The position numbers were made by a program, and so were the translations under genes. The notes beneath the pieces were generated by a model that was not told where the DNA came from, made no database searches, and saw only the letters and a program-made list of their open reading frames with translations. Below are positions 2 through 6,662 of a DNA stretch of 64,000 bases, piece after piece. The DNA is from Dehalococcoidia bacterium (GTDB lineage Bacteria > Chloroflexota > Dehalococcoidia > GIF9 > AB-539-J10): positions 5,327-69,326 of the forward strand of contig JAUWYX010000007.1 in NCBI GenBank assembly GCA_030615625.1. The letters are read 5' to 3'. Each line of letters begins with the position of its first letter. Position 1 is the first letter of the stretch.

Positions 2-70
2 CCCCTGGAAGTGACCATTTATGATGCCCAAGGCAAAGAGCTTAAAAAACTGAGCCAGGGTATCTCATAG
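2..70 (+). CDS. C-terminal fragment of a [NiFe] hydrogenase large subunit (MvhA/VhuA/VhuU-like tail), truncated by the window edge
   Basis: Frame 2 reads PLEVTIYDAQGKELKKLSQGIS*, resembling the cleaved C-terminal extension of group 3c large subunits. It lies directly upstream of a hydrogenase maturation protease. Confidence 0.55.
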   Translation, partial: PLEVTIYDAQGKELKKLSQGIS

Positions 71-1396: not shown

Positions 1397-1855
1397 CTAT
1401 CCGCCAGCGACATAAAGCCCGCTTTTACCTCCACTCTTCCTCACCAGGCGAATCTCTCCAATGGTCATACTTCTGTCCACTGCCTTACACATGTCATAAA
1501 TAGTCAGAGCACTTACAGATACCGCTACTAGCGCTTCCATTTCAAATCCTGTTTTCCCTACTCCCTTAGCGCTGGCAGTAATCTCAACAAAATTGCCGTT
1601 TTTAGGCAGATAAAATTCAACTGCAATGTGGGTGAACTGGAGAGGGTGACACAAAGGTATAAGATGGTGAGTTTCTTTTGCGGCCATGATTCCAGCTGTT
1701 TTTGCCACGGCTAAGACATCTCCTTTTTCTAGTTCCCCTTTACGGATAAGTTTTAAGGTAGCGGGCTTCATCTGCAACTTACCTTTGGCTACTGCTTGGC
1801 GTTGTGTTTCTCTTTTCTGTGTAACGTCTATCATGTGAATTTGCCTTGACTCCAT
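1397..1855 (-). CDS. moaC: Cyclic pyranopterin monophosphate synthase MoaC
   Basis: Motifs LIPLCHP, GKTGFEMEAL, LTIYDMCKAVD and KSGGKSG. A GGAGG SD precedes the ATG at 1855. Confidence 0.96.
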   Translation of the reverse strand: MESRQIHMIDVTQKRETQRQAVAKGKLQMKPATLKLIRKGELEKGDVLAVAKTAGIMAAKETHHLIPLCHPLQFTHIAVEFYLPKNGNFVEITASAKGVGKTGFEMEALVAVSVSALTIYDMCKAVDRSMTIGEIRLVRKSGGKSGLYVAGG

Positions 1856-1857
1856 TC

Positions 1858-2835
1858 TCAACCTCCAATCTGCGACATTTTTCGCTTCACCAGCCTGACA
1901 TTGCTTCCCTCTAAATGATGATGCTCCGGCTTAAAAGCAACTGCCTTCAGAATCAGACGTTTTAGCTCCTCCATCGAAGCATTATTGCGTAGCGGCATTT
2001 TTAAGTCAATCTCATCTTCTCCCAGAAGGCAAGGGCGTAGTCTGCCATCTGGAGTAAGTCGCATACGGTTACACCGGGAGCAAAAAGAAAGCTCGGTGAG
2101 CGGACTGATGAAGCCTATAGTGCCCTTGGCTCCAGCCAAGTGATAATACATAGCAGGTCCGTTGCCAGTTATGGACGCACAAGACTTAAGCTTGCCAAGC
2201 AAACTAATATGTTGTCGCAATTCGGCGGAAGATACAAACTCTGCTACACCCTTGAAGGGCATAAGCTCGATGAATCGGACATGACATCTCTCTTCATAGG
2301 TCATCTTGGCAAAATCCAGTATCTCATCGTCGTTTATGCCCCGCATGACCACTGTGTTTATCTTGACCGAATGGAAGCCAGCTTCCTTTGCTGACTCGAT
2401 GCCCTCAAGAACATTTTTCAATTTTCCAAGACGGGTTATGTATTGAAATTTATCGGCTTTAAGCGTGTCCAGACTCACGTTAACTCTAGACAAGCCTGCT
2501 TGCTTAAGTTCCAGAGCATAGTTCTTCAGAAACATCCCATTTGTCGTCAAAGACAGCTCTTGAATTCCCTTTATTTGAGAGAGCATCTTAATAAGCTTGG
2601 GCAACTCAGCTCTAACCAGGGGCTCGCCACCAGTGAGCCTTATCCTGTTGATGCCCAGCTCTGCCGCTGCTTGGACGACAGTACGAACCTCCTCGTAAGA
2701 AAGAATCTCGCTATGTGGCATCTGGGGGACACCTTCAGGTGGCATACAATAGAGGCAGCGCAGGTTGCAACGGTCAGTAACTGAAATCCGGAGGTAGTTT
2801 ATGCTCCGTCCGAAAGAATCAAGAGGTCCAGTCAT
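1858..2835 (-). CDS. moaA: GTP 3',8-cyclase MoaA (radical SAM)
   Basis: LRISVTDRCNLRCLYCMP, C-terminal CSRC-x13-C and terminal IGG. Start placed at MTGPLD, which overlaps the tupC stop (ATGA). Confidence 0.96.
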   Translation of the reverse strand: MTGPLDSFGRSINYLRISVTDRCNLRCLYCMPPEGVPQMPHSEILSYEEVRTVVQAAAELGINRIRLTGGEPLVRAELPKLIKMLSQIKGIQELSLTTNGMFLKNYALELKQAGLSRVNVSLDTLKADKFQYITRLGKLKNVLEGIESAKEAGFHSVKINTVVMRGINDDEILDFAKMTYEERCHVRFIELMPFKGVAEFVSSAELRQHISLLGKLKSCASITGNGPAMYYHLAGAKGTIGFISPLTELSFCSRCNRMRLTPDGRLRPCLLGEDEIDLKMPLRNNASMEELKRLILKAVAFKPEHHHLEGSNVRLVKRKMSQIGG

Positions 2836-3920
2836 TGGCGAATTTCCTTTTCCATAATATGCACCCCGGTAGCTTTGAAAGTAGCATAGACTTCCCTGCC
2901 CTCTTGTAAATTCAATTCTTCTGCTGATATTTTGGTGACTAAGGCTACTAGGCGGAAGCCACAATTTATTTCCACCCGGCTAAGGGGGCCAAGAGTGGTT
3001 ACTCGGCTAACCTTGGCCTGAAAGGAATTCCTCGCCGAGCTTTGGGTGCTGGATAAAGCTAGAGTGATATCTTCAGGCCTGATGCAAGCATATACTTCCT
3101 TTCCCACGGGGTAGTTAGAAACTGCCTGTATGGCATTGCCACCTATATTTACCATGGCTATACCTTCGTTGTTTGCAATTATTACGCTTTCTATGATGTT
3201 CTCCATACCGACAAAATGAGCCACCTCTTCGTTTTGGGGTGAACGGAATATGTCGGTGACATTGCCTGTTTGAACAAGTCTGCCATCAAGGAGCACCCCT
3301 ATCCTGTCAGCGAGTTGCTGCCCTTGAGACATATCGTGCGTTGCCATTATCATGGTAGTGTTACGTTGCCGGGCAACGTATGAAATTAGCTGCGCAATCT
3401 TTGCTGTGGAAATAGGGTCAAGGTTAGCTGTCGGCTCGTCCAATAACAACACCTCAGGTTCGAGCACCAGGGACCTGGCTAAAGCTACTCTCTGCGCCTC
3501 CCCACCAGAAAGTGTCCGGGCGTTTCTATTCTCATAGCCTTTTAACCCAACCATTTCCAGAATATGGTCAACTTTCTCGGCAGTCTTGTTCTTTCCCTCT
3601 CCCCTCCATCTTAAGCCACAGGCAACATTGTCGTAGACACTCAAATTAAATACCTGAGGTTTCTGGTGTATAAATGACATCCGACGACGTATCTCCAATC
3701 TTTGTTTCCCCGACCGGGGGATGCACTTGCCATCAAAATAGATTTCCCCCGCGCCAGGGACTTCCAGAAGGTCTATAATACGTAAAAGCGTTGTTTTGCC
3801 CGCCCCGGTGGGCCCGATTAAAGCAAACACTTCGCCTCTATCAACGCTAAGGTTGATATTCTCCAGTATCGCCCGCTCACCATATCTGTGGTTTAGTCCC
3901 GTTACTTTTATTAAAGACAT
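2832..3920 (-). CDS. tupC: Tungstate/molybdate ABC transporter ATP-binding subunit with C-terminal TOBE domains
   Basis: Walker A GPTGAGKT, LSGGE and LLLDEPT, a TOBE-like C-terminus (FKAT), and operon position. Confidence 0.85.
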   Translation of the reverse strand: MSLIKVTGLNHRYGERAILENINLSVDRGEVFALIGPTGAGKTTLLRIIDLLEVPGAGEIYFDGKCIPRSGKQRLEIRRRMSFIHQKPQVFNLSVYDNVACGLRWRGEGKNKTAEKVDHILEMVGLKGYENRNARTLSGGEAQRVALARSLVLEPEVLLLDEPTANLDPISTAKIAQLISYVARQRNTTMIMATHDMSQGQQLADRIGVLLDGRLVQTGNVTDIFRSPQNEEVAHFVGMENIIESVIIANNEGIAMVNIGGNAIQAVSNYPVGKEVYACIRPEDITLALSSTQSSARNSFQAKVSRVTTLGPLSRVEINCGFRLVALVTKISAEELNLQEGREVYATFKATGVHIMEKEIRQ

Positions 3921-3923
3921 CTC

Positions 3924-4610
3924 TTACCTCTGCTGCAACCTATTCAAGACAATGTTAATGATGAGCGCCAGGAATAGAAGAATTATGCCTAGCGCTATAG
4001 CTAGTTCCAGCTCACCCTTACTTGTCTCCAGATATGCCGCTGTAGTCAACACCCTGGTGACGCCCTTGAAATTTCCACCGATCATCAGAGCACATCCAAC
4101 TTCCGATATGGCTCTGCCAAAACCCATTATCACAGCAGCCAGCACGGCATACCTTGCCTCCCTCAGCACGAGCCAGATGGTCTGAAAGCCGCTGGCACCA
4201 AGCGATGTAGCGGTATCCACAATCTCCTTACTTACACCGCTCAACGCAGAAATGGTCAAACCAAGCAGTAAGGGAGTGATTAATATCATCTGGCCAATCA
4301 CCATGACAGTGGGAGTGAATATTATGCCAAGGACACCCAGTGGCCCGGCCCGGGAAAATAGCACAAAAACAAACAAGCCCACAATAACAGTGGGCACGCT
4401 GAACAGCGTCTGGATGATATTTGTTAAGGCCCTTTTGCCACGGAACTGATGGAAGTGTATTAAGCTCCCCAGTGGCAGGCAGATCAGAGAAGCCAGAAGA
4501 CAGGCGGTCCCCGAAATCCTCAAGGACCTCCCGGCTATCTGCATTACCTCGGGGTCGAGGGATATTATGAGTTCTATGGCCTTGGTAAGGCCGTGCCATA
4601 TTTCAGTCAA
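3924..4610 (-). CDS. tupB: Tungstate ABC transporter permease
   Basis: Motifs FGRAISEVG, GGNFKGVTRVLTTA and LETSKGE are typical of TupB. Confidence 0.9.
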   Translation of the reverse strand: MTEIWHGLTKAIELIISLDPEVMQIAGRSLRISGTACLLASLICLPLGSLIHFHQFRGKRALTNIIQTLFSVPTVIVGLFVFVLFSRAGPLGVLGIIFTPTVMVIGQMILITPLLLGLTISALSGVSKEIVDTATSLGASGFQTIWLVLREARYAVLAAVIMGFGRAISEVGCALMIGGNFKGVTRVLTTAAYLETSKGELELAIALGIILLFLALIINIVLNRLQQR

Positions 4611-4790: not shown

Positions 4791-5690
4791 TTACTGGCAA
4801 ATCGCTGGATCACAGGGGTAGAATAGCGGTTCTCCATAATCTGGCACGCCAAATCCGGCGATTAAAGCCTGGATTTCAGGTGCTCTGAGGAAATCTACCA
4901 GATTTTGAGCCATCTCAGGATTGCTACCGTTCTTGCAGATGATCACCGAGTAGACATTGAGCAGGATATTCCCTGTGTCTACCAAGGATACCAAATCCAA
5001 GTCGCCTTGGTAAGCAAGGAAGGTTCCCTTGTCTGTCAGGGTGTAAGCAATTTTCTCGTTAGCCATAACCAGTGTTGCCCCCATGCCTGACCCAGCTTCG
5101 ATATACCAGCCAGCGGTCGCTCCAGTTCCTTGAATATCCTCTGTATAATTATAGCCGGCTGCTGCCCAGACGGCTTTTTCTTTGCCGTGAGTTCCCGAGT
5201 TATCCCCTCGAGAGACGAATTTGACCATCTCCGGGTCATCCTCCCCCACTTGCTGGATTTTTTGGAAGCCTTCTTCTGGACTCAAGCCACTAACGCCTGC
5301 GGGGTCAGCCTCAGGGCCTACGATGATGAAATAGTTATAAGCCCAGGGGACTCGCTCCACACCATATCCTGCTGCTTCAACAGCGTAGCCACCGGCTATA
5401 AATGCTGCCTCTTGAGAGGGGTCATGGACGGTAACCACATCCACATCACCCCTTTGACCTAATTCCAAGGCCATACCGGTGCCTTTAGCTGTTATCTGCA
5501 AGTCGACGTCGTATCTTTGCTCAAATAGGGGCTCCAGAGCATCCCACAATTCGGTGTCGTCAAGGCTGCTAGTGGTTGCTACCCTTAGTCCTGCGGGAGC
5601 AGATGTCATTACAATGACACTAATGATTATGGCAACTGCTATGACAGCCACTGCGATAACTTTCGTCTTTATACTTACCTCCAGAGTCAA
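4791..5690 (-). CDS. tupA: Tungstate ABC transporter substrate-binding protein; the true start may be ATA at 5672
   Basis: N-terminal hydrophobic anchor and motifs ATTSSLDDT, GTGMAL, FVSRGDNSGTH and YTLTDKGT. Confidence 0.88.
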   Translation of the reverse strand: MTLEVSIKTKVIAVAVIAVAIIISVIVMTSAPAGLRVATTSSLDDTELWDALEPLFEQRYDVDLQITAKGTGMALELGQRGDVDVVTVHDPSQEAAFIAGGYAVEAAGYGVERVPWAYNYFIIVGPEADPAGVSGLSPEEGFQKIQQVGEDDPEMVKFVSRGDNSGTHGKEKAVWAAAGYNYTEDIQGTGATAGWYIEAGSGMGATLVMANEKIAYTLTDKGTFLAYQGDLDLVSLVDTGNILLNVYSVIICKNGSNPEMAQNLVDFLRAPEIQALIAGFGVPDYGEPLFYPCDPAICQ

Positions 5691-5731
5691 AAATACTTCT
5701 GCTTAATGAATTAGCGAAATTGCGACACGGT

Positions 5732-5803
5732 TTAAAGGAAGCAACAAGCGGGAATAAAAAAGCACCGCCACAAAAACGGTGCCGTCCAAAAACCAAGCTT
5801 CAT
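5732..5803 (-). CDS. Putative 23-aa leader peptide downstream of the Moco riboswitch SD
   Basis: GGAAAGGAGGGATT-ATG followed by MKLGFWTAPFLWRCFFIPACCFL*. The ORF spans the terminator hairpin. Confidence 0.45.
   Translation of the reverse strand: MKLGFWTAPFLWRCFFIPACCFL
5755..5782 (-). terminator. Intrinsic terminator in the tupA leader
   Basis: Minus strand GCACCGTT-TTTG-TGGCGGTGC hairpin followed by TTTTTT. Confidence 0.75.
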
Positions 5804-5805
5804 AA

Positions 5806-5918
5806 TCCCTCCTTTCCTAGCACGGGAGGCACAGACATTTCTATCTGTGCCCTCGAGGCTTTTTAGCCTACCGGCTGCTTGCCATGGTTATTCTTTAGGC
5901 AAGACAGCTCGGAGAGAG
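5806..5918 (-). ncRNA. Molybdenum cofactor (Moco) riboswitch motif
   Basis: Minus strand CTCCGAGC..CCTAA..ATGG, a GAAA-capped P4 (GGCACAGATA-GAAA-TGTCTGTGCC) and CCTCCCGT..GGAAAGGAG. This matches the architecture of the E. coli moaA leader and lies upstream of tupABC-moaAC. Confidence 0.9.
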
Positions 5919-5937
5919 CTAATAGTCAGTCTTGGAT

Positions 5938-5966
5938 ATTGTATCAGGGACTCGCTAAGCAAACAA
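5938..5966 (-). promoter_or_regulatory. Sigma70-type promoter for the Moco leader
   Basis: TTGTTT-17 nt-TACAAT with an extended -10 TG. Confidence 0.5.
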
Positions 5967-6017
5967 GTGCCGCATATAGATATAGATACAGAAGCGACAG
6001 CCGGGTAAGTGAAAAGA

Positions 6018-6662
6018 TTATGCCTCTTCTGCTTCTTCACTTGGCGCAGCCTCTTCGGGAGCTTCAACCGCCTCCTCCGCCACCTCTTCTTCTATCTTTT
6101 CCACAGGTCGCGAACTAATTTTCACCACAACCAACTCTGGGTTGTTAAGAACGGTAATATCTTTATCTAGGGCGACATCTTTGATGCGTATCGTTTGCTC
6201 CGGCTCAGTGAGGGAACTGATGTCCACTTCCAGGCTAGTGGGGATTTTTGCTGGCAAGCACTCTACAGTCAAAGTCCCAAGCTCATGCTCCAGCATATAG
6301 GTTTTAGACTTCAAGGCTGGCGCTTCTCCGACTAAGACAACAGGAACCTCTAACTTTATCTTTTCCTCCATTTTTACCTGATAAAAGTCTACATGGAGCA
6401 ATTGTCCCTTCCGCCAATCTCTATCAAATTCGCGAATCACAATGGTCCTTGGCTTCTTCTCCTTGTCGAGCTTGAGGCTAATAAGCCTTGTCTGCCCAGC
6501 TTGACCTAACACTCGCTCAAGTTCACCAGTGTCGCACTGTAGTGCTAGAGACTCGATGCCGTGCCCAAAAAGATGCACCGGAGTAATTCCCTGGCGGCGC
6601 AAATGCTTGACTTTTTTACCGAGAATCTCCCGGTTGGTAACCTTTAACTCTATTTTGTCCAT
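6018..6662 (-). CDS. rplY: 50S ribosomal protein L25/Ctc
   Basis: Motifs LRRQGITP and LLHVDFY, a C-terminal beta domain and an acidic tail. Confidence 0.95.
   Translation of the reverse strand: MDKIELKVTNREILGKKVKHLRRQGITPVHLFGHGIESLALQCDTGELERVLGQAGQTRLISLKLDKEKKPRTIVIREFDRDWRKGQLLHVDFYQVKMEEKIKLEVPVVLVGEAPALKSKTYMLEHELGTLTVECLPAKIPTSLEVDISSLTEPEQTIRIKDVALDKDITVLNNPELVVVKISSRPVEKIEEEVAEEAVEAPEEAAPSEEAEEA

Follow-up and report, generated by a model that had tools for sequence, protein, structure and literature searches.

A stretch of 64,000 nucleotides (nt) from a Dehalococcoidia bacterium (assembly GCA_030615625.1, contig JAUWYX010000007.1, positions 5,327–69,326; hereafter the window) harbors on its minus strand a molybdenum/tungsten cofactor (Moco) riboswitch aptamer, which is followed by a short leader open reading frame (ORF) that runs into and across an intrinsic terminator ahead of a five-gene molybdenum/tungsten transport and cofactor operon. 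We propose that the riboswitch gates translation of this leader and that the ribosome blocks the terminator, so that transcription of the operon follows the state of the aptamer; we regard this reading as only just short of an even chance. Translation of the leader, timely arrival of the ribosome and a resulting change in termination are what we infer from the arrangement described below.

Aptamer, Leader ORF and Terminator

The aptamer, extending from 5926 to 5793 on the minus strand, matches the complete RF01055 model of Rfam (model positions 1–135) with 78 bits against a gathering threshold of 36 (E = 2.2e-18), and it is the single Moco match in the 1.62 Mb genome. The Rfam alignment displays the P1–P5 architecture, in which P4 is capped by a GAAA tetraloop, and the conserved junction, and P1, P2, P3, P4 and a 2-bp P5 are recovered by an RNAalifold consensus of 45 congeners (see below). 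GGAGGG within the 3′ strand GGAAAGGAGGG (5817..5807), a strand whose columns underwent 0–2 parsimony changes each in these congeners, is at once the 3′ half of P1 and a strong Shine-Dalgarno (SD) sequence. In the original prediction, which was made by a model from the letters of this DNA, the Moco feature was placed at 5732..5918; the anatomy is present there, but the feature lies on the minus strand and the aptamer starts at 5926.

As was also predicted, the ATG at 5803, located 5 nt past GGAG, is not the start of tupA and opens a mini-ORF. This ORF of 23 codons (5803..5732), whose peptide is MKLGFWTAPFLWRCFFIPACCFL, crosses the hairpin (5783..5761) and the T-run that extends to 5756, and the claim of a 23-residue ORF over a hairpin plus U-tract is confirmed in full. 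Codons 8–16 span the hairpin and the T-run, and codons 8 and 9 (GCA CCG, Ala-Pro) constitute the 5′ arm of the terminator. With an SD and a start codon opening an ORF into a terminator, the region has the layout of an attenuation leader, and the ORF spans the whole hairpin. The length of 23 codons in the window is due to codon 12, TGG (5770–5768), which replaces TGA, TAG or TAA of most relatives. Three Cys codons of the peptide had been speculated to sense sulfur; since these codons lie beyond the stop position of 21 of the 34 relatives that have the ATG, sulfur sensing is unsupported.

The hairpin, GGCACCG..CGGTGCT with five G-C pairs, is followed by a run of six T and has the form of an intrinsic terminator. 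Folding energies of −13.2 to −15.2 kcal/mol (z = −2.75) were obtained for it, and 3 of 200 shuffled sequences fold equally well. In an 800-nt region, one terminator-like site was observed against 0.9 expected in shuffles; the site alone is thus at chance level, and the case has to rest on conservation in relatives. Moco matches were found in 47 of 52 species genomes of the genus. A genus sample was compiled of 45 platforms in which the aptamer is immediately followed by this hairpin and its T-run. The terminator, including its pairing, is kept in 45/45 of these canonical platforms. The stem bears a compensatory double change in one species (L012) and G-C to G-U wobble changes in six others (L022, L035, L036, L049, L026, and L041). 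On the tree of 45, columns changed by parsimony 0–3 times in the stem, 3–8 times in the linker and 0 times in the aptamer core. Given the stem conservation, the compensation in L012 and the wobble changes, the terminator is, on this comparative evidence, real and under selection.

Flanking elements are less constant. The U-run 5′ of the stem is variable across congeners. The pyrimidine-rich stretch past the T-run pairs with the aptamer strand GGAAAGGAGG in the minimum free energy (MFE) fold of 5930–5680, and its columns (5737..5755) underwent 4 to >10 changes in the 45 congeners. A role of this stretch in relaying or masking the SD of the first gene was rejected because the stretch and the first gene both differ among congeners. 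A bidirectional terminator was likewise discarded, since the plus-strand reading has no T-run, as was a coding signal in the form of a stop codon in the terminator loop, because a T[GA][AG] triplet is equally frequent in the species lacking the ATG. Coordinates of all features are collected in Table 1.

Table 1. Features of the riboswitch-controlled region in the window, and three R-A-P-P leaders found elsewhere
Feature	Position	Strand	Basis or remark
Ribosomal protein L25 gene	end at 6018		upstream of the aptamer
Probable sigma-70-type promoter, TTGTTT (5966–5961), 17 nt, TACAAT (5943–5938)	5938..5966	−	read by eye
Moco (molybdenum/tungsten cofactor) riboswitch aptamer, P3-bearing form	5793..5926	−	RF01055 and RNAalifold
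Conserved 3′ strand of the aptamer, GGAAAGGAGGG	5807..5817	−	Rfam alignment
Leader mini-ORF, ATG 5803–5801, 23 codons, stop TAA 5734–5732	5732..5803	−	ORF reading
Intrinsic terminator, stem 5783–5761 (9 pairs, 5-nt loop), T-run 5761–5756	5756..5783	−	fold and conservation
Pyrimidine-rich stretch past the T-run (ATTCCC...GCTTCCTTT)	5737..5755	−	complementary to the aptamer GGAAAGGAGG strand
TupA-like tungstate-binding protein, operon gene 1	4791..5690	−	NCBIfam NF041772 TupA, E = 1.7e-48, 165 bits (below the 400-bit cut-off)
ATP-binding cassette (ABC) permease, TupB-like	3924..4610	−	NF038017, 235 bits, above cut-off
ABC ATPase, WtpC-like	2832..3920	−	NF040840, E = 2.9e-95, 319 bits (below the 440-bit cut-off)
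MoaA, GTP 3′,8-cyclase	1858..2964	−	TIGR02666, 376 bits, above cut-off
MoaC, cyclic pyranopterin monophosphate synthase	1397..1861	−	TIGR00581, 194.6 bits, above cut-off
R-A-P-P leader L114, genome G188, same class	G188:C1:1598973-1599117 region		CGC GCA CCT CCT TAA
R-A-P-P leader L073, genome G051, same order	G051:C5:295580-295697 region
R-A-P-P leader L217	Dehalococcoidia genome record (genome_contigs)		CGG GCA CCA CCT

Search for an RNA Antiterminator

Control by RNA alone is the default design for riboswitches with terminators. Moco aptamers with terminators are known (PMC2408646). The window may be read as an ordinary transcriptional Moco riboswitch with an undetected antiterminator or a kinetic folding pathway, the ORF being an accident of an ATG after an SD-like strand; we consider this unlikely. 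In the 45 genus platforms, no antiterminator pairing was detectable by pairing gain, duplex energy or RNAalifold. When the 5′ arm of the terminator is paired upstream, the gain in the genus is 0 to −6.8 kcal/mol with inconsistent partners. The corresponding gains are −12.7 kcal/mol for L002 and −6.5 for L060, whose arms can pair with the aptamer GGAAAGGAG. This complementarity of the arm to the GGAAAGGAG strand is plain in sister genera (e.g., L002, L060, L077, and L085); the same tests do reveal clear antiterminators there. The duplex of the arm with the aptamer strand has an energy of −5.6 kcal/mol in the window, whereas clearly complementary loci reach about −10 to −17.6. The RNAalifold consensus of the 45 sequences presents the aptamer and the terminator as separate folds and leaves the 5′ arm free, its pairing probability being ≤0.37 with the 3′ arm withheld. 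By these tests, the window does not qualify as a classical terminator/antiterminator platform, and an RNA antiterminator that would fully explain regulation, which the original prediction had named as grounds for giving up its mechanism, was not found in the 45 platforms.

No individual candidate for such a pairing survives. The pairing of GUGCU in a small aptamer loop with AGCAC is lost in ~15 of 45 sequences. For the 5′ strand of P2 facing the GGACAGC flank, a single double change, in L003, is suggestive, but the pairing fails in L012, and only some species have ACGGUG in J2/3; both the P2 and the J2/3 candidates vary without compensation. An extension of P1 (AGCU/AGCU) lacks covariation, and GGGAAYA pairing with URUUCCC past the T-run would come too late to act before termination, with C columns that are variable. 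For an RNA-only switch it can be said that both terminator arms are conserved nearly letter for letter, as if each had another partner, that the genus conserves neither the ATG nor the frame nor the length of the ORF, and that terminators with neither detectable complementarity nor a start codon exist outside the class. From these terminators of other phyla it follows that the metrics used here miss some mechanisms. Such a switch leaves unexplained the codon-phase pattern and the class-level excess of start codons that are described below.

A different use of the arm is seen at L238 (a genome_contigs record from another phylum), where the 5′ arm of the terminator consists of the P1 3′ strand plus the linker. 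Ligand binding would prevent termination at this locus, making it an ON switch.

Proposed Mechanism

Judging from the alignments, the only visible link between the conserved aptamer and the conserved terminator would be the ribosome loaded by the free SD. With bound cofactor, GGAGGG would be held in P1, ribosome loading would be prevented, and the terminator, 20–47 nt past the ATG, would form, stopping transcription of the tupA-like, tupB, ATPase, moaA and moaC genes. In the absence of the cofactor, the strong SD would be free and a ribosome would initiate at ATG 5803. Because this ATG lies 20 nt 5′ of the stem, the ribosome would cover the 5′ arm of the terminator (codons 7–9) after few codons, and RNA polymerase would read through. 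According to a study of E. coli (PMC4824070), the efficiency of a terminator falls from ~90% to <10% when ribosomes stop only a few bases away from it.

Leader ORFs in the Genus and in the Class

The leader ATG is present in 34 of the 45 congeners, and in all 34 the ORF reaches the stem or ends 2 nt short of it. Leaders of 11 codons are usual (21 of the 34), one each has 10 and 5 codons, and the remaining 11 have 23–67. Among 44 distinct sequences of the window's platform family, the entropies at the first, second and third positions of codons 2–6 are 3.18, 1.51, and 4.05, respectively. Second codon positions are thus the most conserved, followed by first and then third positions (P = 0.003 against random choices of 5 out of 15 columns). 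For example, the third codon of the leader encodes Leu by CTT, CTA, CTC, or TTA.

The class sample comprised 137 loci, of which 42 were dropped, either because no terminator was called, because the terminator started >60 nt away or because the SD itself opened a long gene; the 95 loci used fall into 47 clusters. Among clusters whose arm/aptamer complementarity is weak, 22 of 25 have a start codon 3–10 nt past GGAG, defined as SD-proximal, vs. 10 of 22 among those with strong complementarity (Fisher, 0.004), and counting ATG only, the figures are 18 of 25 and 7 of 22 (P = 0.009). In a control window 11–18 nt downstream, a start codon occurs in 8 of 25 and 7 of 22 clusters. Mini-ORFs that end exactly at the foot of the stem were recognized at several loci (L007, L076, L104, L078, and L116).

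R-A-P-P Platforms

Metagenome contigs were scanned for aptamer ends followed by an AGCACC arm, which yielded at least 119 loci, at least 114 of them distinct. Together with the genome loci, at least 160 distinct platforms are available: at least 71 of the window type, at least 41 of a sister type, at least 44 of a third type, and at least 4 others. The third-type arm reads (A/C)GAGCACCTCC. All of the 20 third-type loci tested are RF01055 matches of ~119 nt, a length from which their aptamers are deduced to lack P3. Among the matches listed, to which the third-type counts that follow refer, the SD-proximal ORF of the 44 platforms reaches the arm in frames 0, 1, and 2 in 36, 2, and 1 cases, respectively, and in 5 there is none; counted by linker cluster, the frames are 14/1/1 in 21 clusters (binomial, 1.2e-5). 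The starts are ATG, GTG or TTG with a spacing of 3–10 nt, and the start-to-arm distances are 17, 20, 23, 26, or 29 nt, so that a fixed linker hairpin cannot account for the frame. Of the 44 platforms, 33 encode Arg-Ala-Pro-Pro (R-A-P-P or RAPP) in frame 0 of the arm, and 3 encode Lys-Ala-Pro-Pro. At the Arg codon, AGA is found in 27 platforms, CGA in 7, and AGG in 2, while GGA never occurs and TGA occurs once. A stop codon directly after R-A-P-P, found in 15 platforms, gives rise to leaders of 9–12 codons.

The motif is also encoded by other codons behind Moco aptamers, at L114, L073, and L217 (Table 1); L072, a paralogue of L073, is frameshifted and has no R-A-P-P. Including these three and the loci L264–L378 from metagenome contigs, R-A-P-P on the terminator 5′ arm behind Moco aptamers is seen with leaders of 9–25 codons. 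A small hairpin with the leader start codon in its 5′ foot stands directly before the R-A-P-P arm at loci such as L264, L278, and L280. This start-codon hairpin reads CATGCTA..TAGCATG, with covarying forms TGGCAA..TTGCCA and GACGC..GCGTC, and it may be a pause hairpin or one that masks the start.

R-A-P-P is known as a ribosome-arrest motif (PMC10951233, PMC12992588, PMC7897499) that is insufficient without a suitable N-terminal part (PMC10951233, PMC12992588). The published surveys for RAPP drew on annotated proteins, and they would therefore miss ORFs of ~10 codons. In a ribosome stalled at R-A-P-P, the P and A sites would be occupied by the 5′ arm of the terminator and the mRNA channel by the 3′ arm. 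The third-type arm is in addition complementary to the aptamer strand, and because of this the RAPP family may use both RNA and the ribosome.

The window and the RAPP family have in common the AGCACC arm and its frame (ACA GCA CCG vs. AGA GCA CCT), and the window's family shares with it the usual length of 11 codons and a stop where the 3′ arm begins. In the window, the peptide reads T-A-P-F (..T-A-P-F-L..), which is none of the RAPP-type arrest sequences (RAPP, RGPP, RAGP, and RAPG). Unlike the RAPP family, the window has neither an arrest motif nor complementarity between arm and aptamer. Its leader may be a weakened relative of the R-A-P-P platforms; common descent is not established since the RAPP aptamers are P3-less. 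A third kind of expression platform can be outlined for Moco riboswitches of this bacterial class, in which P1 gates the SD and a leader of 9–23 codons leads the ribosome onto the terminator arm, where it would be parked by R-A-P-P in one family and would act by simple occupancy in the window; a translational aptamer would thereby govern transcription of an entire operon. We put this forward tentatively, with the balance of probability tilted against it.

Weighing of the Evidence

A number of observations weigh against control of the terminator by the ribosome. Of the 45 congeners, 11 lack the ATG (ATA in 6, AAG in 3, ACG in 1, and ATG-TAA in 1), its presence changes 10 times by parsimony, and the three ATG columns change 1, 4, and 7 times, compared with 3–8 times for linker columns. 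The species without the ATG have intact-looking aptamers and terminators. Changes of the ATG fall on terminal branches in 11 of 12 cases vs. 65 of 83 for the linker, a difference that is not significant, and an explanation of this tip excess by purifying selection was dropped, the tree being star-like with 72% of its length on the tips. ATA was also rejected as a usable start codon, as the SD-proximal positions that open ORFs in this genome show no enrichment for it (5 cases, vs. 18 for AAA and 10 for AAT). The frame is shifted by 1- or 2-nt indels in four congeners (L011, L023, L040, and L049), and 22 of 71 distinct window-type platforms among the matches listed have no frame-0 ORF. As far as the alignment can tell, the leader start codon is without detectable constraint in the genus. 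Loss of the ATG and frame in relatives, which the original prediction had accepted as a refutation, has thus partly occurred, with 11 of 45 congeners lacking the ATG, 4 more frameshifted and leaders ranging from 5 to 67 codons.

Timing and peptide sequence add to these points. According to the E. coli study (PMC4824070), a ribosome rarely catches up with the polymerase in the first 100 bp unless there is a pause; no more than 47 nt separate the leader ATG from the point where the T-run ends, and any conserved pause element in the leader is putative. The window has T-A-P-F and not R-A-P-P, and the aptamers of the RAPP family are P3-less.

The class-level association is also fragile, as it varies with the way loci are clustered and with the metric. 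With coarse clusters, P is 0.04 to 0.32; automatic clustering at a distance of 0.40 lumped unrelated platforms. With 57 loci of other phyla included, duplex energy yields P = 0.016 to 0.07 and a folding-cost metric P = 0.64, and several loci in this cross-phylum sample have terminators of weak complementarity without a start codon (L147, L159, L177, L207, L241, and L248). The cross-phylum sample is itself a weak test because its CCGAG filter removed 69 of 126 loci, including true Moco RNAs.

The repeated loss of the ATG suits another explanation, that of a decaying platform. The mini-ORF and terminator would stem from a translated, possibly RAPP-type leader, and the coupling would be weak or lost in the genus, leaving the terminator as a fixed attenuator and the aptamer to act elsewhere, if at all, through mRNA stability, Rho, or pairing of the pyrimidine stretch. 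The AGCACC arm, frame, 11-codon length and stop at the start of the 3′ arm, all in common with the RAPP family, agree with such an origin, as does the lack of both the arrest motif and the arm/aptamer complementarity in the window's family; the GGAAAGGAGG strand pairs with the stretch past the T-run in the MFE fold. However, the aptamer core has 0 changes per column in 45 species, those without the ATG included, which argues that selection acts on the sensor and that there must be something for it to control. The pyrimidine stretch varies, and descent shared with the P3-less RAPP platforms is not established. We judge decay to be improbable.

Taken together, the coupling of ribosome and terminator anticipated by the original prediction draws support from the lack of a detectable RNA antiterminator, from the class-level association and from the frame of the RAPP family; it is weakened by the variable ATG, frame and length of the leader in the genus.

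Promoter, Operon and Related Loci

A consensus promoter scan made no call at 5938..5966, where the −35-like and −10-like hexamers of Table 1 were read by eye. TTGNNN-16..18-TANNNT is matched at this position in 25 of the 40 congeners that have sufficient upstream DNA. Many congeners (L005–L056) keep TTGACA-17-TGATATAAT almost perfectly, directly upstream of the aptamer, and the window version is weaker. We infer that 5938..5966 functions as a promoter, with a transcript start probably a few bases 5′ of the aptamer.

Downstream on the same strand are molybdenum/tungsten transport and cofactor genes for TupA-like, permease, ATPase, MoaA and MoaC proteins, in accordance with the predicted tupA..moaC operon. 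The permease scores above the cut-off of NF038017 and, against the TupB model, has E = 1.7e-50, below the cut-off. Candidate starts of the tupA-like gene are TTG 5690 and the SD-proximal ATA 5672, 113 to 131 nt past the leader ATG, which agrees with the 110–130 nt that had been estimated. The in-frame TTG at 5690 has no SD. The SD-proximal codon, ATA (5672–5670) in the window, is ATG in congeners; L011 has ATT, with an ATG further downstream.

In this one genus, the same unit of promoter, aptamer and terminator precedes three different first genes (L001–L056), namely, the tupA-like gene, a gene with an MTGMSSWKKP-like start and a lipoprotein gene with an MKGILPKIAS-like start. The Moco leader seems to travel as a module. 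Promoter, aptamer and terminator do form a compact unit, as would be expected if they mainly made a stable small RNA and the operon were driven by a separate downstream promoter. This is very improbable: there is no promoter-like site between the terminator and the tupA-like gene, and occurrence of one unit before three first genes is what is expected for a cis-acting leader.

Logan contigs of relatives were found in four sequencing runs (85% likeness), and one of these contigs spans 5593–6090; being assembled sequences, they reveal neither RNA ends nor transcription. Over all Logan contigs, the highest share of sampled words in any sequencing run is 0.21.

Other arrangements were observed at related Moco loci. 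At L083 (G188:C1:1247827-1247951 region), the SD of the aptamer opens an upstream ORF (uORF) of 15 codons whose TGA overlaps the moaA ATG (ATGA), an arrangement that resembles translational coupling between a uORF gated by the riboswitch and the main gene. Genome G088 harbors 13 Moco matches in 1.5 Mb. Nine of these paralogues (L105, L106, L110, L111, L117, L120, L122, L124, and L130) have an altered aptamer 3′ strand (GGAAAGAAGA and similar), followed by a conserved GGGAGGTG-type box, ~80 A/T-rich bases and then genes with twin-arginine-like signal peptides, and no terminator was called in them.

Comparison With Known Systems

The arrangement had been thought to be undescribed for Moco RNAs, which holds for one part of it. 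In 2008, Regulski et al. (PMC2408646) already described Moco aptamers that have intrinsic terminators behind them, so that this part is known, and the new element is the translated leader over the terminator. In the accessible text of the open-access papers and preprints found, no riboswitch is described that is separated from its terminator by a leader ORF or an arrest peptide, and the open-access RAPP literature found, to the extent of its accessible text, contains no report of a RAPP peptide behind a riboswitch or on a terminator arm. If the proposed mechanism is true, riboswitch outputs extend beyond RNA refolding or Rho: a switch that does no more than hide an SD could silence a five-gene operon transcriptionally, and riboswitch terminators without an antiterminator would be accounted for. 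Furthermore, frame conservation alone can reveal regulatory ORFs of ~10 codons that gene callers and RAPP surveys miss.

The following comparisons draw on the accessible parts of the cited papers. The Moco motif RF01055 (PMC2408646) has the same aptamer, with purines resembling a ribosome-binding site inside P1, and controls the same kinds of genes, namely, those for molybdenum/tungsten transport and Moco synthesis. The window differs from those descriptions in its leader ORF between aptamer and terminator and in having no detectable antiterminator pairing. In pyrBI-type attenuation (PMC4824070), a leader ORF likewise extends into an intrinsic terminator or across it, and the hairpin is kept from forming by a ribosome that follows closely; the signal there is the coupling of polymerase and ribosome as set by pausing, whereas in the window it would be access to an aptamer-gated SD. 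The leader gene of that system is 135 bp, compared with 11–23 codons here. Riboswitch uORFs of Mycobacterium tuberculosis (B12, PMC11260477; Mbox, PMC12810186) resemble the window in that a translational switch acts on a short uORF, which decides downstream expression. They use termination-reinitiation or Rho-dependent termination, and the uORF does not lie over an intrinsic terminator hairpin. RAPP arrest peptides such as ApdA, ApdP, and CruR are longer and precede protein-localization or metal genes, while the window leader has T-A-P-F. Arrest by leaders of only 9–12 residues is putative, and if it takes place, R-A-P-P leaders would join the biology of arrest peptides with that of riboswitches.

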